Source: Tubulanus polymorphus
Taxonomy: Eukaryota > Animalia > Nemertea
Length of the DNA: 64,000 nt
Direction of reading: 5' to 3'
Assembly (NCBI RefSeq): GCF_964204645.1
Contig: NC_134026.1
Location: 14,790,150 to 14,854,149, forward strand
The translations under genes and the position numbers were made by a program. Positions within the stretch are counted from its first letter, which is position 1. Each line of letters opens with the position of its first letter. The notes under the pieces are model-generated. The model saw only the letters and a list, made by a program, of their open reading frames with translations, was not told the origin of the DNA and made no database searches. This document shows positions 12,979-51,804 of the stretch, piece by piece.

Positions 12979-12979
12979 A

Positions 12980-13369
12980 TTGGTTTTCTGATTGGATGCC
13001 TTGAAATATCATATTATTTCTATTTTCTTTAGTTAACCATAAATCTTTATAATGCATAAATAAATTAGAATCATCTAATGAGAAAACTGTGTCTGGACCA
13101 ATCTTTATAATTAATTTTTTAATCAAATATCTTCCAACATTATCAACAACGTAATTATTATTATTGCCAGTTACTTTTATATCGGCTGATAAATAAATAC
13201 TATTTGGAACATAAAAAGTATTTTGTGTTAATCGAGGAATTCTAACATATAAAGTTTCATCAGGATTAATATTAGAAGGATTATGAGTAATTATATGATG
13301 TGATCTTTCTGCTTTAATAGCATTAGATATTCTATGATTCTTAGAAGGACTTATATAACTCCCACTCAT
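12980..13369 (-). pseudogene. Putative major capsid protein, N-terminal fragment (inverted duplicate)
   Basis: Nearly identical to the first ~130 aa of the 26741 ORF. Confidence 0.8.
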
Positions 13370-13389
13370 TTATTTAACAAAAAAATTAA

Positions 13390-14840
13390 TTATTTATTTT
13401 TTATCATATTCACTAACCCAAAAATAATTGCACTTACAACTGTAATTAAAAATAAAATAATATGTTCAGCAGCAAAGTTAAGAATATTCCCTGCAGATTT
13501 CAATATAAAACCAACAATTGATGCAATAACTCCGGGTAAAGCTGCAGCAGATTTTTTAGATAGTTCCCATAAATATTTTGCTAATTTCTTTAAACCATCT
13601 TTAACTTTATCTTGTATAGAATTATTATCATTTGGCGGTTTATCTGGTTTATTAGGATTTAGCGTAGATTTCAGTGAATTTGATATAGCTAAACCAATTG
13701 TTGTAAATACCATAGTTACAGCTGTTAGAATTGAAAGAATTGTTATACCTTCTAACTTAAATAATAATTTTATTCTATCTTTCAATGATATTTTAGAATC
13801 TGGTTTAATCAACAAATCTTTAAGAATAACTTTTAATCTATTAATATTATAATCATGTGATTTTAATAATAATTTAATTTTTTCTTTCTGAAATTCTATG
13901 TTATATTCTAAATCATCTTTTTCTTTTTCTAAATATGCATTTGTTTTTTTAAATTCGATTTCTTCAATAACTTTATTATCTCTATCTAATTTTAGTTGTT
14001 CTATTTCTTTAATTTTATCAGTTCTATCTTTTTCTAACGTTCTAATTTTAAAATCTCTTATACTTTTATCATGTGCAATTTTATCAGATGCAAGTCTTAT
14101 ACTAATAATTTCTCTTATTGCTTTATCAGAAAATATATTTAAATCTTCTAATTCTGGATCTGTTGCATCAAGTAATCCATTTGGTAAAAGTTTTTCAATT
14201 GGTACTTTATTTGATTTTAGTTTACTAGTTTTGGAAGTTATATTCTGTTCAGAAGTTCTTTCTGTTTCTAAATTATTTTTGATTGTTTCAAATAAATCAT
14301 TAATTCTTTGTTTAAATACTCTTTTATTTTGATTTATTTCTTCTTGTGTTACATTTTCTATTTCATTACTATTACTTATTCTTTTAATTCTATCTGGTTC
14401 TAATTTTTCCAAAGTTGATTCTGCTAATATTTTGTTTTGATTTTTATAAGAGATATCAATATAATAATTATCTTTCAAATGATAATAATATTCACCATCT
14501 AAAGATTTTAATTCTTGTACTAAAAGTCTGGCGCCTCTATCATTTATATTATACCCAGATCTTTCAAATACAGGTTTGAATCTATAAATATATTCATTAT
14601 ATTCTAATCTTTTTTTACTAAATCTGGATTTTCATTTTCAGGATTTATTCTCGATTAAGTTCTATCAAATTCATCTGTTGATTGGCCTTTAGAACCACTA
14701 TCTGCTAAATTAGAATTATATGCTGATTCATCATCATTATCAATATTAGTTTCTGCATCATTATAATCATCATCAATATATCCTTCATTATTATTTCCCA
14801 TTTCTCCCATTTCATAATCATCTCCACCTTCTACATCCAT
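13390..14840 (-). pseudogene. Acidic/coiled-coil membrane protein, variant copy (frameshift near 14600)
   Basis: Paralog of 25075-26680; C-terminal hydrophobic helices. Confidence 0.75.
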
Positions 14841-14856
14841 TTACATAATAAAAAAA

Positions 14857-16315
14857 TTAATATTTAAAATATAATATTCCTCCAATTACAATTCCTATAC
14901 AAGTTATAGCTAATTTAGCATTTTCATGGGATTTATTGTCATCATTTAGTTTAATTATTTCATGTTGAATATTATCAGTTTCATTATTCCTGAAGATGAC
15001 TATTAGGATATAGTCGAAACGTTGAAATAAACTACTATCTCGAAGTTTCATTTTCGGACTTTTTATTATCATTGTGGGATTCTCTCCTCATCGCGTCAAC
15101 ACGGATATAGTGTTCTACCAATCGTGATTATCAGTTTTAATATTTTCTGATGTATTGTAATCTTTTATTTTAGAATCATTATTTAATTTAATATTCTTAG
15201 ATTTAGTTTCTGTTGATTGAATATGTTTTTTATTTTTTTCACCTTCCATTAATTTTGGAGCAGTAATAATCTTTTTATTTATATCATTTAATCCAAATGA
15301 ATTATTTATTGTTGCAGTCTTAATTAAATTATTATAACCCATCATTATTTCCCATCTTTAATACTAAATCATTAGAAATAATTAATAGATTAGGGCCTAT
15401 ACAATAATTTAATCTAATATGTGATTTATCTAAATAATTTTGATATCTTACAATGTTTTCTGGAATCGATCTATTTTTATCATTATGAATAGAATCTTCA
15501 AATAAAACTTTGAATCGTTTCTGCGCATCAAATGAAGTGTTATCATTTCCAACTATTGGTGATCTTGTTTCAACTTGCGCACCTAGAATACATATCAAAT
15601 AAGTTCTAATAGATTGATTTATTCTTTGTATACCTGTTATCGTAAAACCTTCACTTTTTTCTAAAATGAAATTAATCCAACCATTATTATTATCAATTTT
15701 ATAATTATGATAAGCTGAAATTCTATGCATATAATCAATTCTTTTTATTTCATACTCTTCACCAATACCTTGCAATTTACCATGCGCTCTAAAATCGGAA
15801 TTAATATTTATATTAAATTCATTACATATTTTATAAAACTTAGATAGATTAATATTATTATCCAATTCTTTAAAATATTTAGATCCGGGCAAAGGACATT
15901 CTAATTCATTTGATATTACTCTGATTTGAAAATATGTGTGAAATCTAAATATTGTGTGAATCAATTTTAAATCAGAATACTTCAAATTTTTATCTAAGTT
16001 ATTCAAATGATCATTCCAACTTATACCACAACCAGTTGTTGCACAATAAACAGCAAAATTTAATTGGTTCTGCCAATATTTCATATTAGATTTTACTTTA
16101 TATATATGATATTCATCTCGAGTAAAAGTAACTTCATATGTATTAAATATATTTTCCATTTTAGAAATAAAAAACTGTGATTCAGTAACATAAATTTCTA
16201 AATTAGTTAATGAATTTAAAACTAAATTTTTATATGTAATATTTTTTTTAAAATCTATTGCAGGAATATTATATTTAATTGATTTATTATATTGGAAAGC
16301 TTTTGGAAACCCCAT
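14857..16315 (-). pseudogene. Conserved Maverick protein with a C-terminal TM helix, variant copy
   Basis: Paralog of 23670-25058 (YWQNQLNFAVYCATTGCG); frameshifted and carrying a 145-bp insertion. Confidence 0.75.
14982..15126 (+). mobile_element. 145-bp Penelope pLTR-like insertion containing a hammerhead ribozyme motif
   Basis: Absent from the paralogous copy; flanked by an 11-bp duplication ATTATCAGTTT; CTGAAGA-T-GACTAT/ATAGTC-GAAAC core. Confidence 0.8.
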
Positions 16316-16331
16316 TTATATAATTAAAAAA

Positions 16332-16570
16332 TTAATAATTTATTAATTCTTTAAATAATTTATCTTGTTCTTCAACTGTTATATGACCATTTAAACTTAT
16401 TATATGATCTAGTGTATTTTTTAATTTATTAATTTCTTTTATATTAGTTTTAATGTTTTTTTTATTACTTTTTATATTTAATTTTGAACTTATGCCAGTT
16501 AAAACACTTGAACTTAAACCTAATACACCGATTGATATAGCTAAAGGTGTTAATGAACTGAATATAACTA
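16332..16570 (-). pseudogene. C-terminal fragment of the 144-aa membrane protein (inverted duplicate)
   Basis: Matches the 3' part of 23219-23653 (TPLAISIG..LGLSSSVLTGISSKLN). Confidence 0.7.
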
Positions 16571-16586
16571 TAACTATACTATACTA

Positions 16587-16757
16587 CTCGCGAAACTCAT
16601 AAAAATGAAAAATAAATTCTCACACGCTCGAATTTATTTTTCATTTTTATGAGTTTCACTCCTAATTCAAGTAGAAAATGTTATTATTTTCATGTTTTTC
16701 ATTTTTACTCACCCGCCCATTCAACCTTTAACCTGAAAGCCTATTACCCCTATTACT
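16587..16757 (+). repeat. Internal partial Maverick terminus with an extra apical hairpin
   Basis: Inner arm of the terminal palindrome (ACTCCTAATTCAA...CCTATTACT) preceded by a ~28-bp-stem hairpin at 16592-16657. Confidence 0.8.
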
Positions 16758-16962
16758 CTTAAAATAATCATATACATGAATAACATTTAAATTGACAGAT
16801 TATTCAATATAAAAGTATATATTTACAACATTATTTCAATATTTATATTTGTATGAGTTAGATTTTTAAACATTAAAAGTGTTAGTAAAGTGTGATTGAA
16901 ATAATTCATATATAAATCATTGAACTTCTAAAATCAATTTTAATAAAAAATTTAGTATTAAA

Positions 16963-19900
16963 ATGGAAGCAAATAAGTACTACTGCCCAACATGTAATAT
17001 CAATATAGATAAATCCCAAAAAGAAAGACACAATAAAACTAAAACACATTTAGAGAATAAATTGAAATTAGAATATGAAGATGGTATATTAGAAACTAAA
17101 TTAGATGAATTAAAGAATGAAAAAGAAATATATAAATGTGATACATGTAATCAATCATTCAGTGATAAAAGATATTATAAAGAACATTTAAAATCTAACA
17201 GTCATATTAGAAATAAGAATAATGATATTTTAGGTGAAGATTATTTTGATAAAGATAATGATAAGAAACAGAAGACAATTAAAAGCATAAAAAATAAATT
17301 AAACAATAAAAGACCATACATGGAAGATGTAAGAAATTATATTAATTCATTAGATAATAAAAAAGATATAGAGATAACCGAAGCATTTAAAAGTGATTTT
17401 GGTCCAGCAGCTATTGAGTTTAAATTTCATAAAGGAAAAACATTAGAAGAAAATAAAAAACATTTAGAAAATATGAAAAATATTATAAAAATAATAACTA
17501 ATGTTGAATATCCTAAAATTAGTATATCTTCTAAAGTAAAGTTTATAAAATCTGAAGATAAACCAATATATAATATAAATTCTCATTCACAACATATTAT
17601 ATCTAAACAACATATAGATGATAAATTAGATAAATGTTATAATGAAGTAAAAACTAAAATAGAAGAGAAATATTTTGAAGGATCAGGTTTAATATTTGAT
17701 GAAATAATATTTATGACTTTACATGTCTATAACACAAAATATAATGAGGAAACTAAATCGAAACCAATAGATGAAAATAATGTATCATATCATAAAGAAC
17801 CAGATATTTAAGCATCGAGTTATATTAAACTACCATTTAAAACTAATGCTGTTATAAATGTACAAAATTTTGATGATAAATGATTTTTATGGGCAATAAT
17901 TAGTTGCTTACATGCTGCAACTGATAATATTTGTAGATTAACTCATTATAAACCATTTGAAAATAATTATAAGATAGATAATTATCCTGTTAGAATTAAA
18001 AATATTCCAAAAATAGAAAGAGATAATAATTTAAAAATAAATGTATTTGATTTAATCAAATTGCCAAAAACAAAAGGTAACAATATAAAACATTATACAT
18101 AAGAACCTTTATACCTTTAAGATTATGATTCAAATGATGTTATAGATATATTATAGTATGAGAATCATTATATGTGGATTAAACAAATCGATTTATGCTT
18201 TAGAACAGAAAGTGATCACCATAATAAAATATATCTATGTAGAAAATGTTCACATAAATTCAGTAATGAAAGTACATTATTAAATCATAAACAATTATGT
18301 GAAAATCATGATTATTGTAAATTAGTTTTACCAAATGAAAAGGATAAAATATTAGAATTCAAAAAATATGATTACAAAAATAAAGTACCATTTGTAATAT
18401 ATGGGGATTTTGAATCATTAAATAAAGAATTAACTGATCAAGATAGAAAAGAAATATATTATAAAAGAAAGAAATTAAATTCTAATGAAAATGATATAAT
18501 TGATTATTCAGATCCCCTTATAACAACTACTATTAAAAAGATTCATCAATCAGCTGCAGCTTTCGGATTATATATTAAATCTGATTATCCAGAACTAATT
18601 AAAAGTGAATATTATCATTATAGAAATTAAAATGTTATCAATCATTTTTGTGACTTATTAATTGAATATGAAATAAGATTTAGTAAATTATTGAATACAA
18701 ATATAGAAATTATAATGACAGAAGAAGATAAGAAGCATTTGAGTTTGCAGATAAATGTTATTATTGTGAAAAGATATTTAATTATGAAGATAAAAAAAGT
18801 AAAAGACCACGATCATTTGAATGGAAAGTTTAGAGGTGCAGCGCATGAGAATTGTAATTTGCAAGCAAAGAAAATAAATTTTGTTCCAGTTATATTTCAT
18901 AATCTATCAGGATATGATGCACATTTACTCATCAAACAGTTATGCCATAAAATAGAAGAAATTAATAATGAAATAGAAAGATTAAATTCAAATAGATCAA
19001 AAGATAAAATACCAACTTATAAATTTAAAATGTTAGCTAGAACATCTGAGAATTATATATCATTCCAATTTGGGTGTCTAAGATTTATAGATTCATATAG
19101 ATTTTTAAACAGTTCATTAGATAACTTATCAAAATCATTAGTTGATGATGAATTAAAAATATTAAAACAACACTATCCAAATAATGATAATTTTAAATTA
19201 ATGAGATATAAAGGCGCAATTCCATATTCATTTTATAAATCACATAATGATTTTAATATAACTGAATTATTAAAAGAACAATTTTATGATGAATTAAAAA
19301 ATGAATATGTTAAAGATGAAGTATATAATAGAACATTGAATATTTGGAATCCTTTTGTAATGAAAAATCATGGACAATTAGTAGATTTATATTTAAAATC
19401 AGATGTATTATTATTAACTGATATATCCGAAAGATTTAGAGATGTAAACCTAAAATATTTGAATGTTGATCCATGTCATTGTTATTCATCACCAGGATTA
19501 ACTTGGGATTGTGGATTAAAATTTACAGATATAAAAATGGATTTGTTAACAAATATAGATCAATAACTATTATTTGAAAAATCTATAAGAGGAGGAGTTT
19601 CAGGTGTATTAGGTGATAGACATTTCAATGTAAATGATAACCCTGGATATAAGTTATTATATATAGATGCAAATAATTTGTATGGATGGGCAATGATGGA
19701 ACCACAACCTTATGGAGTATTTGAAATAAGTGAAGTTTTACAACATGAAAATTATGATAAATTTGATTGGAAGAAAAGAATCCTAGATATTGCAGATGAT
19801 TCAGATACTGGTTACTTCTTTGTTGTAGATTTAGAATATCCTGAACATATTAAATTTAAAACTAGAAATCTAGCATACTGTCCAGAAAATAAAACTGTTA

Positions 19901-20980
19901 CTCATGAAGAATTATCAAATTATCAAAAAAGAATTAAACCCGAAAATCTTATTCATACAGAAAAGTTAATGGTAACTCAAGAAGATAAATATAATTATGT
20001 AGTACATTATAAAATGTTAAAGTTTTATTTGAATCAAGGAATGATTCTAAAAAAAGTACATAGATATATTTCATTTAGTCAATCTAAGTGGTTAGAAATA
20101 TATAGATTTTAACACCAAACAGAGAACTAAAGCTAAAACTGATTTCGAGAAAGATTTCTTCAAGTTAATGAATAATGCATTCTATGGTAAGACTTGTGAA
20201 AATATTAGAAATAGAAATGATATTGAGTTAGTTAGTAATGGCAAAAGGATAAGGCATTTACAAACATATCCTAAATTTATAGGTAACAGAATATTTGATG
20301 AAAATTTAGCTGCAGTTAAGATGAGAAGAACATCAATGAAATTTAATAAACCAATCTATGTTGGCGCTTCAGTTTTAGAATTATCAAAATTACTAATGTA
20401 TGGATTCTATTATAATGTATTACAACCACTTTTTGGAGAAAAACATATAGAAATATTATATTTTGATACCGATTCTTACATATTAAAGATAAAAACTGAT
20501 AACATAACAGATGATTTAAAAACATTAAAACATCATTTTGATTTCAGTAACTATCCTAAAGATCATGAATTGTTTAGCAATGATAATAAAAAAGTTCCCG
20601 GTAAATTCAAAGATGAATTAGGTGGTGAAGAAATGATAGAGTTCATAGGTATTAGATCTAAAATGTATTCATATAAAACTAAAGAACATGAAGCTAAAAA
20701 GTTAAAAGGAATAACCAAAAGTGTAGTAGAAAAGAATATTCATTTCAAAGATTACATCAATTGTATATTCAATGAAGAAGTTAGAAAACATAAGATGAGA
20801 TGTTTAAGATCTGAAGATCATGAAATGTTTATTGAAGAAATTGAAAAGATAAGTCTAAACCCATTTGATGATAAAAGATATATTTTAGATGATGGAATTC
20901 ATACAGTTGCTTATGGTTGTAATTTAGATGAATACTTAAAATTTAAAAGAGAAGAAACAAAAGAGAACGAAAAGAGATAA
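16963..20980 (+). pseudogene. Protein-primed family B DNA polymerase (pPolB) with N-terminal zinc fingers; several stops and frameshifts
   Basis: YGDFES, DHDHLNGKFRGAAH, FHNLSGYDAH, DLYLKSDVLLL, SIRGG, YIDANNLYGWAM, KLMNNAFYGK, YFDTDS, KKLKGI and DDKRY motifs. Confidence 0.96.
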
Positions 20981-21032
20981 TGAAAAGAATTCTAACGTGT
21001 TAATCAAATTTTAATAAAAATATGTTATTAAA

Positions 21033-21386
21033 ATGGAGAGTAAACAAGCGCACAGTGAGAACAACAAATCATTTCTAGATAGAATAAAAGATACTACAAA
21101 TGTAAAATCTGTAGATTATAAATTCAAAAAGTTAACAGAATTAGCAATCCATAAGAAATATCTAATTACAAATATTGATACAGTTGCTAACAAATATGGA
21201 GATAAATTAGTTATACACTTAGAATATGAAGGATTAAAAGGAAATACACATAAATTCAGAACATATTTACCGGATAGATTTCATAGATTATCAAGTGAAG
21301 ACTTAGAAGAATTATGTTCTGGAGATTTCTATTTCGTATACAAAGGTAAGAATGAAAAAGGGCACCATGAAATAGATTTCGAATGA
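21033..21386 (+). CDS. Maverick hypothetical protein, 117 aa (possible replication accessory or ssDNA-binding)
   Basis: Intact ORF directly after pPolB with the same upstream motif; pattern suggests beta-rich; function inferred only. Confidence 0.7.
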   Translation: MESKQAHSENNKSFLDRIKDTTNVKSVDYKFKKLTELAIHKKYLITNIDTVANKYGDKLVIHLEYEGLKGNTHKFRTYLPDRFHRLSSEDLEELCSGDFYFVYKGKNEKGHHEIDFE

Positions 21387-21403
21387 GAAAATATGTAAAA
21401 TAA

Positions 21404-22162
21404 ATGGTAGAATTAAAAGAATATAGAATATTTGTAGATTCTAGAAAACTTACAAATTATAAATCACATAATTTATTAGTACAATTAGATAGAGAATTCA
21501 AAAATTGTGTTGATTTAAAATTAGTTAATATAAGTTTATGTAATTCTTTTTATAATATAACGGATAAAACTATTGAAGATAATACTTTTTTAATTCATAT
21601 TGGAAATATAGATAAATGGTTTCATATAATTTTAAAACCAGGATTATATAATTTAGAAACATTAGCTCAAGAAATTAATCGAAGAGCACGGTTGAAAATT
21701 AGAAGAGATGATAAATTTTTAATTAGATTTATAAAAAGTGATAGCACAAATAAAATTAAAATAAAGGTATATGATGAAAGTCAACATGCATTTATGGTAA
21801 AAAACCCATTAGCTAAATTGCTAGGAATTGCACCAGATACTGTTACAGGAAACATAGATGGTAATTCAAATATAATACCTTTTACACACTTTTATATTTA
21901 TTGCAATTTAATCGAGCCTACAAAAACATTCGAAGCAACTAAAGAAACAATTTGTAATTCTAGTATAGTAAATATTTTACCGCTGAAAAATGTTAAACAA
22001 TTTGGAACGCAAATAAATTATAATTTAACAGAATGTGATTTTAAACCTTGCATTCCTAAATTTAATAATTTTAAATTAGAAATAAGAAATCACAATGGTT
22101 ATTTAATTGATTTGAATAACTTTCCTGTAATTTATGAATTAGTTGTAAGATGTAAAGAGTAA
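21404..22162 (+). CDS. Minor capsid protein (penton, single jelly roll)
   Basis: Polinton penton pattern: IFVDSR..., NSFYNIT, PGLYNLETLAQEIN, LLG, YIYCNLIE, LEIRNHNGYLIDLNNFPV. Confidence 0.82.
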   Translation: MVELKEYRIFVDSRKLTNYKSHNLLVQLDREFKNCVDLKLVNISLCNSFYNITDKTIEDNTFLIHIGNIDKWFHIILKPGLYNLETLAQEINRRARLKIRRDDKFLIRFIKSDSTNKIKIKVYDESQHAFMVKNPLAKLLGIAPDTVTGNIDGNSNIIPFTHFYIYCNLIEPTKTFEATKETICNSSIVNILPLKNVKQFGTQINYNLTECDFKPCIPKFNNFKLEIRNHNGYLIDLNNFPVIYELVVRCKE

Positions 22163-22178
22163 TTTTTCACCTATATAA

Positions 22179-22529
22179 ATGAATATAACTGTTGGACCGA
22201 GTATATGTTTTGGGTTTGATTTTAAACATAAGAAAGAAATGAAATTTAACGTTAATGATGTAATTACACATATTAAAAATATTGCATTTTCTAATGAAAC
22301 AACATTTGAGTATGAAACAACAATAGATAAAGAAACTTTTAATGTAGAAAAGATTACTAATTTAATTAGAGAATCTTTAAGATTTTATGAATTAGATGAA
22401 GATTTTATCATCGATGAAAAAATAATAATTGAAATATATACAAATGAAACTAGTAATGAAATAAATGTTGAAATAATCATAAATAAGATAACTAAATATT
22501 TTGATGATAGTAATTTTTTTGATAAATAA
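22179..22529 (+). CDS. Maverick hypothetical protein, 116 aa
   Basis: Intact ORF in a tightly packed gene array; TAAATG start. Confidence 0.7.
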   Translation: MNITVGPSICFGFDFKHKKEMKFNVNDVITHIKNIAFSNETTFEYETTIDKETFNVEKITNLIRESLRFYELDEDFIIDEKIIIEIYTNETSNEINVEIIINKITKYFDDSNFFDK

Positions 22530-22751
22530 ATGAGTGATAATAAGTGGATAATAACTGGATTATATAATGGCGCATTACTATCAGTTGGAACTGTTGGTTA
22601 TTCAATGGTATTAAAAAAAGTATTCAAAATGGGAAGTGTTAATGTTGATAGATTTGATATAAATGATATTTTAAAATTAACGTTAGCAGTAACTTTATCT
22701 AATTTAACTATTGATTATTTAGAAAAACAAAAATATATTCCTCCCATATAA
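22530..22751 (+). CDS. Small predicted membrane protein, 73 aa
   Basis: Two hydrophobic segments; TAAATG start. Confidence 0.72.
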   Translation: MSDNKWIITGLYNGALLSVGTVGYSMVLKKVFKMGSVNVDRFDINDILKLTLAVTLSNLTIDYLEKQKYIPPI

Positions 22752-22775
22752 ATACATAATTTTTTTGCTAAATAA

Positions 22776-23198
22776 ATGGCTTCTGCAATTATAACTATTA
22801 TAGGATCGGCAATTGTTAACGCTTTAGCATTTACTGGTGGTGGTTATTTATTTAAACATATTGATAAAAATAGTTCATTAGGAGAACAAAGAAGACATAA
22901 CTTAGCGTTAGAGAAATATAATAAAGCTGCAGAAGAATATAGAGAAAAGAGGCAAAACTATATGGATTATATTAACAAAGAATTATATGATCAGAAGATT
23001 TCACATAGAGATTTTCAATCAGTTGATGATGCAATGAGTTTATATAACGCGGTAACCAATAAAGAAAAACAACATCTATACAAACCTAAATTATCAGATT
23101 ATTATACCCCAAGTAATGAACAGAAGAAATATGAAATAATATGGATTTTAGGTGGAACAGTTATTGTTATATTTGTTGCTTATAAGTTTACTAATTAG
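22776..23198 (+). CDS. Predicted membrane protein, 140 aa
   Basis: Hydrophobic N-terminus (MASAIITIIGSAIVNALAFTGGG), central coiled coil, C-terminal TM (IIWILGGTVIVIFVAY). Confidence 0.78.
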   Translation: MASAIITIIGSAIVNALAFTGGGYLFKHIDKNSSLGEQRRHNLALEKYNKAAEEYREKRQNYMDYINKELYDQKISHRDFQSVDDAMSLYNAVTNKEKQHLYKPKLSDYYTPSNEQKKYEIIWILGGTVIVIFVAYKFTN

Positions 23199-23218
23199 TA
23201 ATTTTTTTTGCTAAATAA

Positions 23219-23653
23219 ATGGATGATAAAGTTGATAATATTGATATCATTCCTCATGATATAAATAAAACTAAATTAAAAACATATTTAGAAAAACAAA
23301 TATTAGAATTTGAAAGTGACTTAAAAGTTAAAAAGAAAAAATATCTAAAAAGTAAAATTATATATTATTTGATTATTAGTGGTTCGGTTACAATTAGTTC
23401 TGTAATAACATTTCTAGCAATATTCAGTCCATTAACACCTTTAGCTATATCAATTGGTAAGTTAGGATTAAGTTCAAGTGTTTTAACTGGTATAAGTTCA
23501 AAATTAAATATAAAAAGTAATAAAGAAAAAATCAAAACTGATATAAAAGAAATTAATAAATTAAAGAATACACTAGATTATATCATAAGTTTAAATGGTC
23601 ATATAACAGTTGAGAAACAAGATAAATTATTAAAAGAATTAATAAATTATTAA
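23219..23653 (+). CDS. Predicted membrane protein, 144 aa
   Basis: Coiled coil, long hydrophobic hairpin, coiled coil. Confidence 0.75.
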   Translation: MDDKVDNIDIIPHDINKTKLKTYLEKQILEFESDLKVKKKKYLKSKIIYYLIISGSVTISSVITFLAIFSPLTPLAISIGKLGLSSSVLTGISSKLNIKSNKEKIKTDIKEINKLKNTLDYIISLNGHITVEKQDKLLKELINY

Positions 23654-23669
23654 TTTTTTAATTATATAA

Positions 23670-25058
23670 ATGGTAGATAGTTTTCCAAAAGCTTTCCAAT
23701 ATAATAAATCAATTAAATATAATATTCCAGCAATAGATTTTAATAAAGATATTACATATAGAAATGAAGTTTTAGATTCATTAACTAATTTAGAAATTTA
23801 TGTTACTGAAACTAATAATTTTAATGCAAAGATGGAAAATATATTTCATGTATATTTAATTAATTTTAAAAAATTGAAAGATGAAAAACAATGGTTATTA
23901 AAATCTAATATGAAGTATTGGCAGAACCAATTAAATTTTGCTGTTTATTGTTCAACAACAGGATGTGGAATAAGTTGGAATGATCATTTGAATAATTCTA
24001 AATATAAATTAATTCAAAGTTTATTTAGATTTCATACATACTTTCAAATCAGAATAATATTAAATGAATTAGAGTGTGCTTTACCAGGATCAAGATATTT
24101 TAAAGAATTAGATAATAATATTAATTTATCAAAGTTTTATAAAATTTGCAATGAATTTAATATAGATATAAATAATTCTGATTTTAGAACAAAAATTGGA
24201 ACAATAAGATCACTTCCTTGCCCTAAAAAGATTGAAGAATATTGTGCACTTCCCATACCATCTAATAGCTTTTATAATATCTATAATAATAAATAAGGTT
24301 ATGGTAAAATAGAAACAAAGGATTTAGAAACATTAAATTTCAATAAATTACCGAAATTTTATGATCATTTAAAACAAGAAAACAATAATGGTTGGGTTTA
24401 TTTCATTTTAGAAAATAGTGAAGGTTTTACTAAATCAGGTATAGAAAGAATAAATCAATCAATTAGAACTTATTTGATTTGTATTCTAGGATCACAAGTT
24501 GAAACAAGATCACCGATAATTGGAAATTTGAATACATCATTCGATACACAAAAACAATTTAAAGTTTTATTTGAAGATTCCATACATAATGATAAAAATA
24601 GATCGATTCCAGAAAACATTAAAAGATATCAAAATTATTTAGATAAATCTCATGTAAGACTAAATTATTGTATAGGCCCTAATCTATTAATTATTTCTAA
24701 TGATTTAGTATTAAAGATGGGAAATATAATTGGTTATAATAATCTAATTAAAACTGCAACAATAAATAATTCATTTGGATTGAATGATATAAATAAAAAG
24801 ATTATCACTGCTCCAAAATTAATGGAAGGTGTAAAAAATAAAAAACACATTCAATCAACTGAAACTAAAACTAAGAATATTAAATTGCATAACGATTCTA
24901 AAATAAAAGATTATAATACATCAGAAAATAATAGAACTGATATTATTCAACATGATATAATTAAACTAAATGATGATAATAAATCCCATGAAAATACTAA
25001 ATTAGCTATAACTTGTATAGGAATTGTAATCGGAGGAATATTATATTTTAAATTTTAA
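23670..25058 (+). pseudogene. Conserved Maverick protein with a C-terminal TM anchor, interrupted near 24296
   Basis: ORFs 23670-24296 and 24474-25058 are colinear with paralog 14857-16315; ends LAITCIGIVIGGILYFKF. Confidence 0.75.
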
Positions 25059-25074
25059 TTTTTGTATTATGTAA

Positions 25075-26680
25075 ATGGCAGAAGGTGGAGAAGATTTTCC
25101 AATGGATACTTTTGGTGATGAACCCGGTATAACTGATGAACCACAACCTGATTTAAATGAAACTAATATTGATAATGATGATGAATCAGCATATAATTCT
25201 AATATAGCAGATAGTGGTTCTAAAGTCCCATCAACAGATGAATTTGATAGAAAACATAGATCGAAAATAAATCCTGAAAATGAAATTACAGGTTTAAAAA
25301 AGGAAGATTTAGAAAATATTAAATTTATATATAAATTCCAACCTGTATTTGAAAGATCTGGATATAATATAAATTACAGAGGTGCCAGACTTTTAGTACA
25401 AGAATTAAAATCTTTAGATGGTAAATATTATTATCATTTGAAAGATGATTATTATATTAATATCACTTATCAAAATACAAGACTTAGTAAAATATTAGCA
25501 GAATCAACTTTGCTTAAGTTAGAACCAGATAGAATTAAGAGAATAAGTAATAGTAATGAAATAACTGATGTTACACAAGAAGAAAGAGCTGATAATATAA
25601 GAGTATTTAGTGAAAGAATTGATGACTTATTTAAAACAATCGATAATAATTTAGAAACAGAAATGGAAGATCATAGAGATCGATTAGATAAATTAAGATC
25701 TTCAACACCCGAAACATCGAGAAGAGATATTCAACAAATTGATAATGATTCAAATCAATTAAATTATGGTAAAATAATTGATACAATGAATTCATTTGAA
25801 GAAGATATGATTAGTATTTTAGATACGCCCGGTACTGAAACTGGAATAAATCGAATACAATCGTTACTAGAAAAAGGATTACTTGATTTAACTGATGATG
25901 AATTAGAAGCATTTCCTGAACAAGCACGTAGAGAAATTAAAGGTATGCAAGAATCAGCTGGTGAAATTGCTAATATCAAGATGAGATTTTCTAAAATAAC
26001 CATGTTAGAAAAAGAATTAACTGATGCAAATGAAGAATTAAAACAATTAGAATTAAATAGAGATCTTCAATTAATCGAGGAAGCTGATTATGAAAGCAGA
26101 AAGTTAGCTTTAGAAAAAGAAATAGATGATTTAGAATATAACATAAAATAACAAAAAGAAGAAAGAGATATATTATTAAAATCATATGATCTTAATCATA
26201 TTAAAAAATTAAAAGTTATTTTTAAAGATTTGTTGATGAAACCAGAATCTAGTATATCATTGAAAGATAGAATAAAGTTATTATTTAAAGGAATAATATT
26301 TAGAAGGAATAACAATTCTTTCAATTCTAACAGCTGTAACTATGTTATTTACAACAATTGGTTTAGCTATATCAAATGCTTTGAAATCTACTCCTACTCC
26401 CACTCCCAATAAACCAGATAAACCCCCAGGTAATAATTCTATACAAGATAAAGTTAAAGATGGTTTAAAGAAATTAGCAAAATATTTATGGGAACTATCT
26501 AAAAAATCTGCTGCAGCTTTACCTGGAGTTAATGCATCAATTGTTGGTTTTATATTGAAATCTGCAGGAAACATTATTAACTTTGCTGCTGAACATATTA
26601 TTTTATTTTTAATTACAGTTGTAAGTGCTATTATTTTTGGTTTAGTAACCATGATATCAAAAAATATCAAGTTAATATGA
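25075..26680 (+). pseudogene. Acidic/coiled-coil protein with C-terminal TM helices (stop plus frameshift)
   Basis: ORFs 25075-26151, 26230 and 26342-26680 are colinear with paralog 13390-14840. Confidence 0.75.
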
Positions 26681-26740
26681 TATCAAAAGATATCAAGTAA
26701 CCATGATAAAAAATAAATAATTAATTTTTTTGTTAAATAA

Positions 26741-27981
26741 ATGAGTGGGAGTTATATCAATCCTTCTAAGAATCATAGAATATCTAATGCTATTAAAGCA
26801 GAAAGATCACATCGTATAATTACTCATAACCCTTCAAATATTAATCCCGATGAAACTTTATATGTTAGAATCCCTCGATTAACACAAAATACTTTTTATG
26901 TTCCAAATAGTATTTATTTATCGGCCGATATAAAAGTAATCGGTAATAATAATAATTATGTTGTTGATAATGTTGGAAGATATTTGATTAAAAAATTAAC
27001 TATAAAGATTGGTCCGGAAACAGTTTTCTCATTAGATGATTATAATTTATTTATGCATTATAAAGATTTATGGTTAACTAAAGAAAATAGAAATAATATG
27101 ATATTTCAAGGCATCCAATCAGAAAACCAAAATAAATTAAGATCAGAAGCTAATAGCGCAATATTAACTAATGCTGTAGATAAATTGATAAAAAGTATAT
27201 ATGGAAGCAAATATAAAATTCCATTAGATTTTGAATTGATAAATAATAATGCACCTTTATATAAATACGCAATTCAAGAAGACGTTATATTCGAGATAAC
27301 ATTTGCTCCTGTAAATGAAATTGTATTATCTAGCGTTAATAAAGATATGAGTTATAAATTATATGTTTAGAATATGATACAGTAACTGATGAAAATATTT
27401 CAAGTATAATTCAAACTAAATACAATCAAGGATTTTCATTATTATATGATTATACTGATAAATTTAAAACCGTAACTATTAATGCAAATGATGAAATAAT
27501 TAATGAGAATATTAACTTCCCAAGAAGATCTATTAAAGGTATATTAATATTTTTTACCATTGCAACATATACTAATGGTGCAATAAATGTTGATAATTAT
27601 TATAATCCTGAAATAACAAAAGTAGAAATAACTATCGAAGGAATAGCAAATGAAATATTTTGTCAAGGAATGAGAATGATTGATCAATGGCCAGAAATTA
27701 GAAAACATTTTATGAATGAAAAAGTAAAATCATCTGAAAATTGTAATATTAATCAAATTGATTATTATACCGGCAATAAATATGCATTATGGTTAGATTT
27801 TAGAACAACAGAGGATAATTCATTACATGGTTCTGGAAAAAAACTACAAAACACTAAAGATGGAATACAATTATTCATGACAAAGAATAAAGGAATCAAA
27901 AATTTTAAAATGCACAATTATATTATATCTGACGCGCAATTAAATATTGTAAATTCACAATTAGATAGTGTTATGTATTAA
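26741..27981 (+). pseudogene. Putative major capsid protein (double jelly roll), frameshift near 27365
   Basis: About 410 codons in total; alternating beta-strand pattern (ITHNPSNINPDETLYVRIPRL..., NINFPRRSIKGILIFF, YALWLDFR); last gene of the structural block. Fold is inferred. Confidence 0.68.
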
Positions 27982-28013
27982 AATTTTAACTTTAATAAAA
28001 AATCTTATATTAA

Positions 28014-28982
28014 ATGGAAGGTGGTAAAGTATATAAACATATTCCATACATCGATACACATGAAAATAATGATGGTTTATATTATGTAATACCTTGTAAT
28101 ATAGCTTTGATATTTGATCCTATTTTCAAAATTTATAAAACTAAACTAATAGAAATCGATAATAATAAAAGTGAAGTTGTTGATCATTTAAGTAATGTAA
28201 TTGATAATAATGTAATACCTTCTACATCTAATAATGTAATACCTACTACATCTAATAATGTAATACCTACTACATCTAATAATGTAATACCTACTACATC
28301 TAATAATGTAATACCTACTACATCTAATAATGTAATACCTTCTACATCTAATAATGTCATACCTTCTACATCTAATAATGTTATACCTTCTACATCAAAT
28401 AATGAAATAATATTAAATGTTAGTGAAAATAGAAATTATTGTGGATATTGTAAAAGTGAATTTTCAAACGCTACATCAAATTGGAATAAACATATGAATA
28501 CAAGGGTACATATAAATAATGTTATAGAACGTGTTGGTTTAAAAGAATTTATAGAACACCCATTTAGATATGTTACAAAGTTTGTTTCAAATCAAAAAGT
28601 AAATGGCGAAAAAATATATGAAGATTTATTATTAGCAACACCTAATAAAGATGAATTAGATTTAACTGATGCTAATGAAATATTAGGATCAAACACTGTA
28701 AATGAAATATTAGGAGCAAACACTAATAAAGATTCTATGAAACATAAAGTAGAAAATAATGATAAATTTGATTGGATGAATAAGCATAACAATGAAACAA
28801 CTATTGATGATTCGGTAAAAAAGGTGAAAAATAAGTATAAAAATAATAAAGAATTAGAAGAAGATTCGGTAGAGAAATTGAGAAAATTGATGGGGTATGA
28901 TAGTGAATTGGAGAGTGATGATGAAAGTGATTCAGAAAGTAATTTTCTAACACTCAAAAAAGTTGAAAATTGTATAAAATAA
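28014..28982 (+). CDS. 322-aa protein with (NNVIPT/STS)n repeats and a C2H2 zinc finger
   Basis: Intact ORF; 24-bp tandem repeat at about 28206-28403; YCGYC...KHMNTRVH; acidic tail. Confidence 0.75.
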   Translation: MEGGKVYKHIPYIDTHENNDGLYYVIPCNIALIFDPIFKIYKTKLIEIDNNKSEVVDHLSNVIDNNVIPSTSNNVIPTTSNNVIPTTSNNVIPTTSNNVIPTTSNNVIPSTSNNVIPSTSNNVIPSTSNNEIILNVSENRNYCGYCKSEFSNATSNWNKHMNTRVHINNVIERVGLKEFIEHPFRYVTKFVSNQKVNGEKIYEDLLLATPNKDELDLTDANEILGSNTVNEILGANTNKDSMKHKVENNDKFDWMNKHNNETTIDDSVKKVKNKYKNNKELEEDSVEKLRKLMGYDSELESDDESDSESNFLTLKKVENCIK

Positions 28983-29113
28983 TAGTAAATAAAAAAGGGG
29001 GGTTTTAAGTATTTAAGGTATCTAATAGGGTATCAAGTATTAGGGTATCAGGTATTAGGGTATCTAATGGGGTATCAGCTATTAGGGTATCTAATACATA
29101 GTCATATAAATAG

Positions 29114-29725
29114 TTATTTTATAAATTTATATTCATAGGGAAATTGTAGTCTCAGTAATAATTTTGAACCTTTATTATTCTTTAATTTATTCATATATTC
29201 ATCATGTAATTCAGTAGGTACAATTTGATTTTCTTCCAATGATTGTTGCATAGATTTTTTATCTTTGTTATAAAATAAAACTAGAAATCTAATGTTTTCT
29301 CTAAAGTCTTTAACAATTGAATTATATTTTTGATTTAAAACCCAAGTTGTTATCCCAAAATGTCTCCCAGAGAAAGCTAAATAACATAACTCACTTTCTC
29401 TAACTTTTGAATCATGTAAATTTGCGCAATCATCTATAATGAATAATGTATTTGATCCTTTATAAGTATCAATTGCTATTTTTATACAATTATCTAAATT
29501 TTCTTTTACTGTTTTAGGATCTAATATAATAAACTTTTTCATCTTAACTATGTCTCTATTATATGTTTTATTCATTTCATAAGTAGGACAAAATAATATT
29601 ATATTATCAAAATGATTCTTATAAATAGTTTCTAACAAGTCTAATATGAAATGTGTTTTACCACAATTGGTTACTCCAGTTATTAACATATTATGCGGTT
29701 CAAATATAAATAAATCTTTATTCAT
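29114..29725 (-). CDS. A32/FtsK-HerA-like genome packaging ATPase
   Basis: Walker A GVTNCGKT, Walker B LFIIDD, and GRH..ITTWVLNQ. Confidence 0.92.
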   Translation of the reverse strand: MNKDLFIFEPHNMLITGVTNCGKTHFILDLLETIYKNHFDNIILFCPTYEMNKTYNRDIVKMKKFIILDPKTVKENLDNCIKIAIDTYKGSNTLFIIDDCANLHDSKVRESELCYLAFSGRHFGITTWVLNQKYNSIVKDFRENIRFLVLFYNKDKKSMQQSLEENQIVPTELHDEYMNKLKNNKGSKLLLRLQFPYEYKFIK

Positions 29726-29732
29726 TTATTCT

Positions 29733-30517
29733 TTAAATTTTACTAGATAAAATCCATTCATTAAATTTATCATCGTATCCTTTATATTTCACCAAAGAAT
29801 ACTTTTTTCCTTTAAGAGTTTTTGTTTTCAATACTTTTTCTATTTTGTATTCTATTTCATCTGGATTTGGTACAAGTGATAATTCTTGTTCATAGAAATA
29901 ACCTTATATTTCTTCATCTTTTATATCTTCTAATTTATAAACAAAAGGTTTAGTTAATGTTATCTTTTTAATCTTGAATATTTCTTCAGTAAAATTTGGG
30001 GTATAACCTTTATAAAATGTTTTTCGATATTTAGATATTCTAACGTGTTGTCCTATTTTAAATTTAGGTTCTCCGAAATCATGTGTAACAAACGCTCCAT
30101 ATAAATTATTCCAAACTATTTCTGAATTATCTTCTTTTCTAGCTTGTATAGGTTTCATATTTATAGAACTATGTTTAGAATTATTATAACCTTTCACCAA
30201 ATCATCTAATATATTGATATATTTATATGTTTCATTAGCAGTAAAATATTTCCACATTCTAGTTTTCAATGTTTTATTAAATATTTCTATAATAGATGCT
30301 TTTTTATCCGAGTGTGTTGAAAAATAATCTACATCGTTATCAGATAATAGTTTTTTAAAATGTTTGTTATAGAATTCCTTACCTTCATCAAATTGTATCT
30401 TATCTGGAATAGCTTCTTTAAATATAGATTTAAAAGCATTTGTAACTTCTATTCCAGTTTTATTTTTGATTGGAATTGACCATGCGTATCGACTGAATAT
30501 GTCTATAACATTAATTA
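29733..30517 (-). pseudogene. Retroviral-type (rve) integrase with chromodomain, 5'-deleted
   Basis: VIDIFSRYAW, IQFDEGKEF, KASIIEIFNKTLK and YNNSKHSSI motifs; C-terminal YKIEKVL..LVKYKGY..FNEWI; internal stop at 29904. Confidence 0.9.
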
Positions 30518-30712
30518 ACTATAATTACTTCCAGCATTAGAAGAATCAGATGGATTATTATTTGAATCAATATCAGATAAAGTCTGTGATTCATTTATAT
30601 CAGTTAATTTCTTTTTCTTAGCTTTTTTTAATTCTGAAGATCTTTTACCTAATTCTCTTGCCCATTTAATTTGTTTCTCGGATCTAGCCTTTTTCTTAAC
30701 TCCATCACTCAT
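30515..30712 (-). CDS. Small basic protein, possibly 3'-truncated by the integrase deletion
   Basis: TAAATG start; KKKARSEKQIKWARELG basic motif. Confidence 0.55.
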   Translation of the reverse strand: MSDGVKKKARSEKQIKWARELGKRSSELKKAKKKKLTDINESQTLSDIDSNNNPSDSSNAGSNYS

Positions 30713-31307
30713 TTATTTTACTTAATTTTTGTTCTGATTCATTTTCTGTTTCACCATTTGGTTGTAGTACATCTGTTTCGTTCTTACCTGATTTATATTC
30801 CATAGGCTTGATGTTCGAAAATGTTATGACACCAGTAGAAATTAATGTCATAACCGATCCTAATTGAAAAGAAGCATAACCAACCCATTTTTGTAATTCA
30901 GTCATAACTAAGTAGTCATTTTTCAAATCACTATATAATTTATTTTCATCATCAATTGGTATTAACTGGTTACATAACTTAGAATAACATTTGACAATAC
31001 CATTCGAAATAGAATCATTTATTTTAGCTAATCTTGCCTCTTCATAAATCTTAAAATATTTTATTACTTTATCTGGTTTCATAGCATCTAATTCTTGAAA
31101 AGTAATAGTCTTAGTTAAAAATTGTTTACACTTTCCGCTAGCAATTAATAATTCAAGATGATGCTTACAATATAAATAGTATTCATAATCTATATTGTTA
31201 TTAACTTGAATAGAATTAGAAACAACTGTATCTTTATTATCACTAATACCCAAATCATCTAATGTCTTTTCAATATGAATACTATTCTTATTAGATTTCT
31301 TTGACAT
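30705..31307 (-). CDS. Maverick hypothetical protein, 200 aa, with a C-terminal hydrophobic segment
   Basis: Intact ORF; TAAATG start. Confidence 0.72.
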   Translation of the reverse strand: MSKKSNKNSIHIEKTLDDLGISDNKDTVVSNSIQVNNNIDYEYYLYCKHHLELLIASGKCKQFLTKTITFQELDAMKPDKVIKYFKIYEEARLAKINDSISNGIVKCYSKLCNQLIPIDDENKLYSDLKNDYLVMTELQKWVGYASFQLGSVMTLISTGVITFSNIKPMEYKSGKNETDVLQPNGETENESEQKLSKINE

Positions 31308-31585
31308 TTACATTAGAGAAATTTAATAAGAATAGTATTATAAGTATTATAAAATGATACTAGATAGTTAAAGTTAAAGAATTCTAGTATTAGTTATTGT
31401 TTTTTTAGTATTTTTTATTTGTGATATAAAGTATTCTTTTTTGAAAAGAAAATATTAAAAATTAAAATAGAAATAATAGATAGTTGAAGGTATGTAAATT
31501 TTATTATATTTTATTTAAATTCTATTTGATATCTCACTACTTTTGTTTATCTATTAGGAGCAGTAGTTATAACTGTCCAGATAAG

Positions 31586-32254
31586 TCATTTCGGATCCTT
31601 GATATCAAATTCCTCAACGTATTGTTCATTATTGTTCCATTGATCAATAAATTTCTTTGCCTTTGTTAACTGTTCTAAATATAACTGTAAATCTAGTTTA
31701 TTAGATTTGATTTGATCTTCTTTCTTTTCTAAAGGCCTTAAATTTTTCCAACCCCAAATAAGTTTTTTATTGTATTCCTCATTCATGTTAAATTTAGATA
31801 TTGGTAACACGTGATCAATATGGTAATAATCCCCATAATTATCTATATTCATTTTATCATCGAATTGAAATATAATCCATGATTTTAAGAATTCATCTGA
31901 ACAACCCAATAAATTAGATAGTGTTTCTGAATGCGTTTCTTTGTTGAATAATTGTGTTAATCTAGATCTTAAACATTGTTTCAATCTAAAATTAAGATCT
32001 GTTTGATATCTTTCTCTCATATATTCTGTCATATAATCATTATAAGCTTCTCTATTATCTTCTCGGTATTGTTTGGTATATAGTTTAAAACAAGTTTTAC
32101 AGCAATATTGAAAACCATCTTTGCTAATCTTACGCTTACTAAATTCTGTTAAAGCTAATTTATCTAATTCACATTTAGAACACTTCTTGTAGTATATATT
32201 TATAACACCAGTGTTATTTGTAATATTTATAGTTTGTGGTTGTTCTGGTTCCAT
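31586..32254 (-). CDS. HNH-family endonuclease with an N-terminal CxxC...CxxC zinc ribbon (type common in NCLDVs)
   Basis: KKCSKC..CKTC, LLGCS..FL, NYGDYYHIDHVLPISKF, NLRPL. Confidence 0.8.
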   Translation of the reverse strand: MEPEQPQTINITNNTGVINIYYKKCSKCELDKLALTEFSKRKISKDGFQYCCKTCFKLYTKQYREDNREAYNDYMTEYMRERYQTDLNFRLKQCLRSRLTQLFNKETHSETLSNLLGCSDEFLKSWIIFQFDDKMNIDNYGDYYHIDHVLPISKFNMNEEYNKKLIWGWKNLRPLEKKEDQIKSNKLDLQLYLEQLTKAKKFIDQWNNNEQYVEEFDIKDPK

Positions 32255-32331
32255 TTATTATATGTATTTTTTACTAAATTGGTTAATATTTCAGAATCCT
32301 CTTCCATTTCTTCGACCAACGTCATCCTTTT

Positions 32332-32583
32332 TCATTCCTCGCTGCTTTTGATAAGTTGTTTCGATTCCTTGATATCAAATTCCTCAACGTATTGTTCATT
32401 ATTTGGATCATTGTTCCATAATTCAATAAATTTCTTTGCCTTTGTTAACTGTTCTGAATATAACTGTAAATATTCTAGTTTCAATTTATTCTCTAAATGT
32501 GTTTTAGTTTTATTGTGTCTTGATTTTTGGGATTTATCTACATTGATATTACATGTTGGACAGTAGTACTTATTTGCTTCCAT
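32332..32583 (-). CDS. Chimeric 83-aa ORF: pPolB first zinc finger (within the TIR) fused to a duplicate of the HNH C-terminus
   Basis: MEANKYYCPTCNI..KLKLEY matches the pPolB start; LQLYSEQLTKAKKFI matches the HNH tail. Confidence 0.55.
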   Translation of the reverse strand: MEANKYYCPTCNINVDKSQKSRHNKTKTHLENKLKLEYLQLYSEQLTKAKKFIELWNNDPNNEQYVEEFDIKESKQLIKSSEE

Positions 32584-32852
32584 TTTAATACTAAATTTTT
32601 TATTAAAATTGATTTTAGAAGTTCAATGATTTAAATGTTATTCATGTACATGATTGTTTTAAGAGTAATAGGGGTAATGGGCTTTCATATCAAAGGTTGA
32701 AGGGGCAAGTGAGTAAAAAATGAAAATAACAATAATTTACAGTTGAATTAGGAGTGTGCACGACTAATTCAACTGTAAATTATTGTTATTTTCATTTTTT
32801 TACGAGCTCGACCCTTCGACCTTTGGTATGAAAGCCTATTATCCCTATTACT
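32470..32852 (-). repeat. Right TIR, including the terminal palindrome at 32664-32852
   Basis: Reverse complement of 9769-10150. Confidence 0.93.
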
Positions 32853-34697
32853 AATATCCTCCAATAATGATGGAGCATTTGCACGCTGGTTAAGTCGTTC
32901 AAACAGAATCTTTTGGTTCTCAAGGACCTTTTCAAGCTTCATTAACACTGTCAACTTGAAATCTGGAAATGAAAAGTGGAGAAATAATCAGTGCTGAAGT
33001 TACACTTCAAAACTAACAACTTGTACAAACATTTTTGTCTACATGCACACCTTTGTCTGGCTCCGTTTCTGTTCCTATTGGTCCTGTGGGAGATTGTCTT
33101 CTGGAAACTGATGGAAAGATTTGGTTAAAAAATCAATTGTTAATTCATGTAATGATATTGAAAGTACACTTGAAAACAACGATTTTGTATTGTTTACCTG
33201 GTGTAGTCATAATACTCGTACTTTCAGTTGGAGTACCAGTTATAAAAGAATCTTGTCCTTAAAAATATTTTCTATAGATCATTCTCTTTTTTAAATATAT
33301 GTTCATGTTCGTAAGAAAAGTTGATACAACTTACTTGGTGTGCTGGTAGTTGCTACTGGTCCCCTTTGCCTTGGCAAGTATGATGGTGGGGTAGGCAAAT
33401 CTGGTTCTGAAAAGAGCATCAATTAGGTAAACCCACATTAGTTTTCAATAACAAAATATAGGAATAATCGTAAACGGATCATAATTTCTCACTTGTAAGA
33501 GCTGATGTCTGTTTAGTTTTTGTGAATTTACAAGGCGGAATATCTGTAAAGCAAAATGGATACAAGAAATAACTATAGGTGGCTAACAATATCAATGCAA
33601 AATATTAGTTCGAGGTATCTTACCATCGTTACTTTCATCACTCAAGAAACGCCTGTTAGGTTTCACCGCGCGACCACTTTTCGAGGCAACCACTTCCTCA
33701 TCGCTCTCTACATGCGACGTTTCTAAAGCATTTAAGGACTTCTGTTCTGCTTTTTTCAAATTTTCTAAACACAGAGGAATCAGTTCGATAAAAAATGTTA
33801 CAAAAAACCTTGCCTTACTTGGACATGGCCAACTCAGACAAAAATTAAATAATTTGGTGATTTCCTAACGTATCTTAGAATCCTTAACTTGGACTTGCCT
33901 TACCTCAAACAAATTTTGCTGGTCCCAATATGACTGAGTTAGGTGAGGCTTACTATATACATTTTTTAGTTTGAATACTGATAACGCTCGTTACACATTT
34001 CAAGGCCAGATTAGTATGTTTTTCATTATGAAAATTAAAATACTTTGCCAGCTTGACTGGGTAAAAACATATAAAGTATCACAAATAATTAATAGAGTCA
34101 CAATCAAAGAACCAAAAAGTTATTTAAAACAACAGCAAGTTGAAATTAATTGGAAATCTAAATTTTAACTTTTCGTTGTGCTAATAGATTTTTTAGTTCT
34201 TTGATCGGGTATGAGACCCTACCTCAAGGGAAAAACAATCAAAACTTCATACGAGAATACTCTGACTTCAAATTTTGTCCATGTTTCTTTGTCCGGTATG
34301 GCACCAGTTTTAGCTTTCTGAGCCTGGTTGAATGATGGCCAATAAGTGCATAGACTCTACAAAAATAAATATAGGAGCATTTTTATATTGCAGCTAAAAT
34401 ATGCAATGACATATTCCAAATTTGTATGTATATTCTTGAAGGGCAATTAAATTCATTATGCCTACCTTGTTTTCGCTAAACAGCCAGGACATATGGATAA
34501 CACCAACAGATTTTTCTGCAACAAACTCCACAACTACATACATCTGTAGAAAAAATCACTGAAACCGTTTATAAGAAGTATCACTTTGACTGGGCACCGG
34601 GCTAAACTTCAGGATACCTTGTAAATTTTTCACAAAAATGTAATAGGAAAAAAAACACCATGAGTCGAGAAGATACACGATATCCATGAAAGATGAA

Positions 34698-46159: not shown

Positions 46160-46163
46160 TCTC

Positions 46164-48534: not shown

Positions 48535-48543
48535 GACAATCTC

Positions 48544-49454: not shown

Positions 49455-49467
49455 GTAACGACCATCT

Positions 49468-51612: not shown

Positions 51613-51804
51613 CTTTCTTTCTTTTTTCTCTTTTTTTTCTTTATTTTTTTATTTTTTTTTTACCTCTACACTTTCACAGTGGGACGGGAGGATGTTGTAC
51701 AGACCAACTCGAAAAAACTCACCACGTGCACGTGTTCATTTTTCCCTCTCAATTTCTTCGAATTCTGGTGTTCAATTTCTCTAACACCACTATCAATACT
51801 TAGT

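Follow-up and report, generated by a model that had tools for sequence, protein, structure and literature searches.

Mavericks, or Polintons (Polintoviricetes; adintoviruses, PMC8502044), carry a DNA polymerase B that is protein-primed (pPolB), an rve integrase, an A32-type ATPase and a double jelly-roll capsid protein, together with terminal inverted repeats and a 6-bp target duplication. An open question about animal Mavericks is by what means their genes are expressed and why virions have not been observed (10.64898/2026.06.19.733378), and gene content varies in the Group 2 Mavericks (10.64898/2026.06.19.733378). Here we analyze a 64,000-nucleotide stretch of the Tubulanus polymorphus genome (contig NC_134026.1, positions 14,790,150 to 14,854,149, forward strand; hereafter the window), which harbors a broken Maverick with all of these features, and address this question through its gene starts. 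The locus differs from described Mavericks and adintoviruses in its hairpin ends, in a poxvirus-type start motif and in that no protease was found; adintoviruses were collected by their Adenain protease, for which no counterpart was detected in this element, and the accessible text of that study contains no mention of the word promoter (PMC8502044).

Polinton-like viruses associated with entomopoxviruses have been proposed as parasites of animal poxviruses (Barth et al. 2024, PMC11296320). Compared by description, they share the Polinton-like character of our locus but have an adenovirus-type protease, highly divergent capsids, and lack rve or use a tyrosine recombinase; their link to a helper is physical co-occurrence, and the main text contains none of the terms promoter, TAAAT, motif or transcription (PMC11296320). 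Mavirus, Sputnik and PgVV/Gezel-14T are likewise small integrating double-stranded DNA viruses without an RNA polymerase, whose promoters match those of their helpers (10.1101/2022.07.28.501842), but they have protist hosts, known helpers of Mimiviridae type and other motifs. The yeast pGKL elements are linear, AT-rich and pPolB-bearing and use a TAAAN initiator (PMC6211774), but they encode their own RNA polymerase, rely on an ATNTGA core, and neither carry a capsid gene nor integrate. Poxvirus-associated polinton-like viruses are already known; of a poxvirus-type promoter architecture in a Maverick lineage, our literature search (supplements and subscription journals lay outside its scope) found no report.

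The element is an integrated, broken Maverick/Polinton, as its target duplication and terminal repeats and its genes for pPolB, integrase, capsid and ATPase identify it, and consists of a rearranged partial copy followed by a full-length main copy (Table 1). All 16 identifiable gene starts of the main copy lie at TAAATG or TAAAATG, compared with 50 of the 640 other ATGs on both strands of 16900-32660 (Fisher p=2e-17). The longer form is found at 16963, 21033 and 32583, and TAAATG at the other 13 starts listed below by core type. A preliminary description of this stretch had reported the motif at these starts and at 13369, 14840 and 16315 in the partial copy, and each of the 19 sites indeed bears it on the strand given there; the partial copy retains it at 10037 as well. 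The site at 32583 repeats 16963 within the terminal repeat, and the partial copy is 83-95% identical to the main one, so these additional sites are not independent. Two upstream patterns proposed at the same time were also matched exactly, an A-rich one (A-type) at five main-copy starts (16963, 21033, 28014, 32254 with a TAG variant, and 32583) and a T-rich one (T-type) at seven (22179, 22530, 22776, 23219, 23670, 25075 and 26741); the starts at 21404, 29725, 30712 and 31307 fit neither strict pattern. No early-type promoter was seen, and a TAAA-type start is present at nearly all genes, the polymerase gene included.

The motif is a conserved lineage trait. A capsid profile search yielded 23 metagenomic loci, of which 15 (L001-L014 and L017) form a closer set that includes several near-duplicates, spans 20-44% GC and has a shuffled gene order. 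In this set, 57 of 63 curated starts carry the motif, compared with 134 of 2208 other ATGs, and in five of the six starts that lack it, TAAAT or TAAAAT lies no more than 7 nt from the ATG. Curation removed 11 of 74 open reading frames (ORFs) that begin in truncated, broken or antisense frames, none with the motif (57/74 uncurated). The relatives that keep the motif have capsid identities of 45-83%, and in a quick tree of 64 rows the motif-bearing loci with a placed capsid form one clade, with a support of 97. None of the ten starts in the outgroup loci L015, L016 and L018 bears it, and gene starts could not be called in L019-L023 and L040 because these loci are decayed or too short.

Might the motif simply arise from AT-rich, tightly packed genes? 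The element is only 23.6% GC (flanks, 38%), and the preliminary description had itself raised AT content and stop/start overlap as trivial causes. Neither holds up. Only 8% of other ATGs in the same DNA carry the motif, as do 13% of starts (26/202) in 32 other, mostly AT-rich viral loci, whereas the three GC-richest relatives (36-44% GC) retain it at 9 of 11 starts. Moreover, six head-to-head gene pairs (four independent) have TAAATG on both sides, 13-24 nt apart. Because the motif is kept at 20-44% GC and in head-to-head pairs, composition and packing do not explain it, and the counts reduce the probability of such an artefact to almost nothing.

A related proposal is that TAAATG serves translation, as an in-frame stop before the start codon that allows re-initiation or insulation on a polycistronic RNA. 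In agreement with this, the genes abut and the TAA is in frame with the ATG. In the main copy, stop and start overlap at two sites (at 22530 the TAA is the stop of the preceding gene, and at 30712 the motif lies inside its last codons), and the TAA of TAATTTTT is the preceding gene's stop at 3 of 7 T-type sites; the remaining plus-strand starts follow the preceding stop codon by 16-60 nt. However, the TAA closes an upstream ORF at only 1 of the 57 motif starts of the relatives, the motif also precedes first genes and is found in divergent pairs, and a translation signal leaves unexplained a core at fixed distance from the ATG. We regard this proposal as very improbable.

That core was delineated by aligning 72 starts on the TAA, with 5000 shuffles as the null. 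T occupies position -12 from the ATG in 66 of 72 starts (shuffle maximum at any position, 50), A occupies -18 in 55 (shuffle maximum, 48), and the 7-mer at -18 to -12 is free of G and C in 61 (shuffle maximum, 42). The A content of the core is bimodal, with a variance of 3.5 compared with at most 2.0 under independence (63 starts, four near-duplicate loci removed), indicating that the two core types are real. The conserved T lies at -10 when counted from the first A of TAAAT and is the ninth position when counted from its T. Vaccinia has bidirectional promoters that share one core. The idea that the A-type core is a T-type core read backwards was rejected: it fits L013 and partly L009/L010, and fails in L003 and L011.

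This layout closely resembles poxvirus post-replicative promoters. Vaccinia late promoters have TAAAT followed by the G of the start codon, with a conserved T at the tenth nucleotide upstream, and intermediate promoters pair TAAA with a stretch rich in A and T that lies 15-19 nt upstream (PMC11980589). The core-to-initiator distances are about 11 and 6 nt, and the G8R intermediate promoter has TAAAAT as its initiator (PMC12722222), the form seen here at the two A-type TAAAATG starts at 16963 and 21033; the first A of TAAAT is the start site (PMC6211774). In a fish poxvirus, many orthologous genes retain TAAATG (PMC4542343), and the signal is thus old in the poxvirus family. The present lineage shares with vaccinia intermediate and late promoters the TAAAT(G) on the start codon, the T ten bases before the start site, the A-rich/T-rich core and the TAAAAT variant; it differs in that the promoters reside on an integrated element of the 16-kb class and precede nearly all genes, including that for the polymerase. 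The poxvirus-type architecture, with an initiator fused to the ATG, a core at fixed spacing and T at -12, extends across the whole capsid clade.

Given this core-spacer-TAAA(T) layout, transcription by a poxvirus-type helper polymerase appears likely. We propose, as the most probable reading although far from a certain one, that a co-infecting poxvirus, or a virus closely related to poxviruses, supplies the RNA polymerase by which the lineage is transcribed in the cytoplasm, in the manner of a virophage. Initiation would take place at the first A of TAAA, and slippage would generate a 5' poly(A) leader. T at -3 is a poor context for translation; it is present in 71 of 78 starts, and the leader would replace it by A. 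The intermediate and late factors of the helper would be used, acting on naked DNA in the viral factory; the element's own pPolB, single-strand binding protein (SSB), ATPase and capsid would then make and package genomes, and a virion-borne integrase would insert these into chromosomes, as for mavirus. In keeping with an external polymerase, no Pfam match to an RNA polymerase or TATA-binding protein (TBP) was found in this copy, whose gene map has no room for a large gene, and searching 22 unassigned proteins for poxvirus polymerase subunits (E up to 1) returned sub-threshold noise only.

The start motif could instead be a lineage-specific compact promoter read in the nucleus by host RNA polymerase II (Pol II), perhaps with an element-encoded factor, its likeness to poxvirus promoters being convergent. 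This is favored by a copy number that is likely high, most reads being 90-99% identical, and also by the presence of several genes (116, 65, 200 and 322 aa) without assigned function, from which such a factor might come; the 116- and 200-aa proteins have no match among PDB sequences. Against it, a TATA[AT]A box lies upstream, at -30, in only 5 of 63 starts, the start site would leave almost no leader before an ATG with T at -3, and Pfam gave no TBP match. Divergent TAAATG motifs 13-24 nt apart leave no room between genes for an upstream Pol II promoter and leader. AATAAA, finally, is not avoided on the sense strand (55 compared with 54.8 expected in 12.7 kb of sense coding DNA, one per 230 nt; 123 compared with 124.9 in a second count), which fits cytoplasmic transcription. 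On balance we consider nuclear transcription by Pol II unlikely. Depletion of the poxvirus early terminator TTTTTNT in coding DNA (3 compared with 7.8, 8 with 21.5, and 3 with 13.4 expected) was discounted as a poxvirus sign and not counted, because A-runs and other T-runs are depleted too and homopolymers are generally avoided.

Alternatively, the element may depend on a helper whose polymerase belongs to a non-poxvirus cytoplasmic system with a TAAA initiator, such as other Pokkesviricetes, a giant-virus lineage or a linear virus-like element. Yeast virus-like elements use TAAAN initiators with slippage (PMC6211774), and T-runs are under-represented in the coding DNA of both core types, unlike the vaccinia late pattern. 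Yet the vaccinia description is closely matched by the conserved T, ten bases ahead of the start site, and by the division into A-rich and T-rich cores, a yeast-like or early ATNTGA-like core (AA.TGA) occurs in only 4 of 63 starts, and the late initiator of African swine fever virus (ASFV) is TATA rather than TAAAT (PMC7163114). A helper of this kind strikes us as similarly improbable.

The preliminary description had further assigned A-type cores to replication genes and T-type cores to structural genes, and had deduced a temporal order of expression. The two core types stand; this assignment is not supported. Core type is not significantly associated with gene identity (permutation p=0.11), and across relatives A-type cores precede 7 of 15 replication genes and 13 of 41 virion genes (p=0.35), five labels in this test (pPolB N-termini and g144-like genes) being guesses. 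The ATPase (5/5), the 322-aa gene (3/3) and most penton candidates have A-type cores, as does the capsid gene in L007 and L011. Because core types do not follow the division into replication and structural genes, the temporal order is unsupported, and replication first with structure later is at best a pattern of this copy.

Apart from this indifference of core type to gene function, several observations weigh against transcription by a poxvirus polymerase. The TAAAN initiators of yeast cytoplasmic elements mean that the motif does not single out Poxviridae, and our comparison used published verbal descriptions of poxvirus promoters rather than aligned promoter sequences. The outgroup contrast is small (10 starts from three loci). 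The AATAAA test is weak, since a host-transposon control is not depleted either (6 compared with 5.3 expected), and GC-richer relatives lean toward depletion (17 compared with 23.1, P=0.07). Pfam recognized no poxvirus-derived gene in this copy or in the relatives' loci, and two motif scans of IMG/VR for a helper gave only chance-like matches, in 16 and 15 loci of which none bears the motif at the majority of its gene starts. Raw genomic reads of one run cover 20000-28100 about 500-fold from 1,934 Mb, mostly at 90-99% identity, which would correspond to roughly 80-500 copies if the genome measures 0.3-2 Gb, an uncalibrated range. The element is thus likely to exist in tens to hundreds of diverged genomic copies, which need repeated germ-line integration, a process that is easier under host transcription.

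The contrast drawn in the preliminary description, a satellite or antiviral element rather than a transposon, is too sharp for an element that integrates with target-site duplication and is likely high-copy. A broader possibility, to which we give somewhat less than an even chance, is that a whole clade of animal Mavericks represents endogenous virophages whose helper is a poxvirus lineage yet to be discovered; they would be silent in germ-line DNA, switched on by poxvirus intermediate/late machinery and perhaps protective of the host. Start motifs would then be fossil labels of the helper, TAAATG of poxvirus type in this clade and TATA, as in asfarviruses, in the outgroup. Transcription by a poxvirus-type helper predicts a poxvirus-type virus in the host and, if true, would mean that endogenous virophages of the mavirus type exist in animals as well; a 20-bp promoter of known biochemistry makes this dependence directly testable.

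Table 1. Features of the Tubulanus polymorphus Maverick, in window coordinates
Feature	Position	Strand	Support
Left target-site duplication, AATATC	9763..9768	+	
Imperfect palindrome at the left end (as DNA, a hairpin of about -75 kcal/mol), with which the ~390-bp terminal inverted repeat starts	9769..9956		
Second copy, rearranged and with deletions: 5' parts of pPolB on +, followed by an inverted g144-to-capsid block on -	9984..16573		
Short internal hairpin and partial terminus between the two copies	16592..16792		
A-type core and TAAAATG initiator of pPolB	16938..16965	+	
pPolB, in at least 5 broken ORFs	16963..20980	+	PF03175 E=6e-7 on one piece, above cut-off
117-aa gene, likely OB-fold SSB; A-type core, TAAAATG	21033..21386	+	
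252-aa minor capsid (penton) candidate; TAAATG	21404..22162	+	
Four small genes (116, 73, 140, 144 aa); T-type core and TAAATG (22179, 22530, 22776, 23219)	22179..23653	+	
Conserved gene with T-type core, broken in this copy (relatives: about 440 aa)	23670..25058	+	
Conserved gene with T-type core, broken in this copy (relatives: about 485 aa)	25075..26680	+	
Double jelly-roll capsid gene, broken here; T-type core	26741..27981	+	
322-aa zinc-finger-like protein, 24-nt tandem repeat; A-type core	28014..28982	+	
A32-type packaging ATPase; TAAATG	29114..29725	-	PF04665 E=2e-12
rve integrase with chromodomain, broken	29724..30518	-	84% against the L003 protein, residues 97-361
Two conserved genes (65 and 200 aa), each with TAAATG (30712, 31307)	30515..31307	-	
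222-aa HNH-like gene; A-type core	31586..32254	-	HNH below cut-off, on a relative
Copy of pPolB promoter and first codons inside right terminal repeat	32332..32583	-	
Right terminal imperfect palindrome (hairpin)	32664..32852		
Right target-site duplication, AATATC	32853..32858	+	

The range 16921..32610 given earlier covers the main copy; the whole element is larger and occupies 9769-32852 between the AATATC target-site copies. This single duplication encloses both the rearranged partial copy and the full-length copy. The two copies differ more in places (83-85% identity) than the terminal repeats do (95%), so the insert was probably chimeric at integration. The terminal inverted repeats begin with AG and are 94.8% identical, left against right, over 388 bp. 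Each end forms an imperfect hairpin of ~190 bp, and the left one recurs on the right as its reverse complement, in the manner of flip-flop telomeres; to our knowledge, hairpin ends are unusual among described Maverick ends. The pPolB promoter and first codons inside the right repeat are joined to a tail that resembles the HNH-like gene's end. Mapping contigs and reads on 20000-28100 (four runs, of DNA or unclassified kind) gave no piled starts or ends.

The pPolB, capsid, integrase and two further genes are broken in this copy, and several assignments lean on relatives. The capsid fold was recognized from a 75%-identical intact relative (Z=25.0, root-mean-square deviation 3.5, 340 residues aligned to the PBCV-1 capsid). 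Integrases of relatives carry rve and Chromo domains, while the N-terminal part was not found in this copy. The 117-aa protein matches a phage SSB (E=5e-5) and, weakly, OB folds by structure (Z only about 5). The 252-aa penton candidate has feature matches to viral clusters (0.98), with DUF5901 below cut-off. Small hydrophobic proteins are also among the products of the main copy. A cysteine maturation protease was sought without success by Pfam and by catalytic motif in the main copy, which has no unassigned gap above 313 bp, and by gene list and Pfam in the 11.5-kb relative L001.

Among the relatives, L001 (10340-10981, behind a T-type promoter) and L007 (2895-3377) encode a deoxynucleoside kinase (PF01712), a gene typical of large DNA viruses; searching with the L001 kinase gave one 37% relative, whose contig lacks the motif, and the HNH-like gene has eight relatives that give no pointer to a helper. 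Searches of IMG/VR with pPolB, with two capsid alignments and with the ATPase found no relatives, phage records contained none, and a search of prokaryote genomes returned one decayed Maverick contig of 55% GC. The capsid relatives P0058 and L040 are filed under a Bartonella record and an archaeal metagenome-assembled genome, most likely through eukaryotic contamination. The capsids of the outgroup loci L015, L016 and L018 are 40-45% identical, and TATA lies at most 20 nt from the ATG in 8 of the 8 distinct starts counted, compared with 34 of 78 in the TAAATG clade; in this small sample, the pattern is reminiscent of the ASFV late initiator. AATAAA is depleted in the outgroup (9 compared with 14.9 expected).

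The flanks of the element contain BEL/Pao and DNA transposons, which point to an animal genome, chiefly on account of the Pao element. In the window, a BEL/Pao retrotransposon occupies 44540-51648, nested palindromic repeats lie at 52129-54015, and a TTAGG-like palindromic element is found at 5117-5781.

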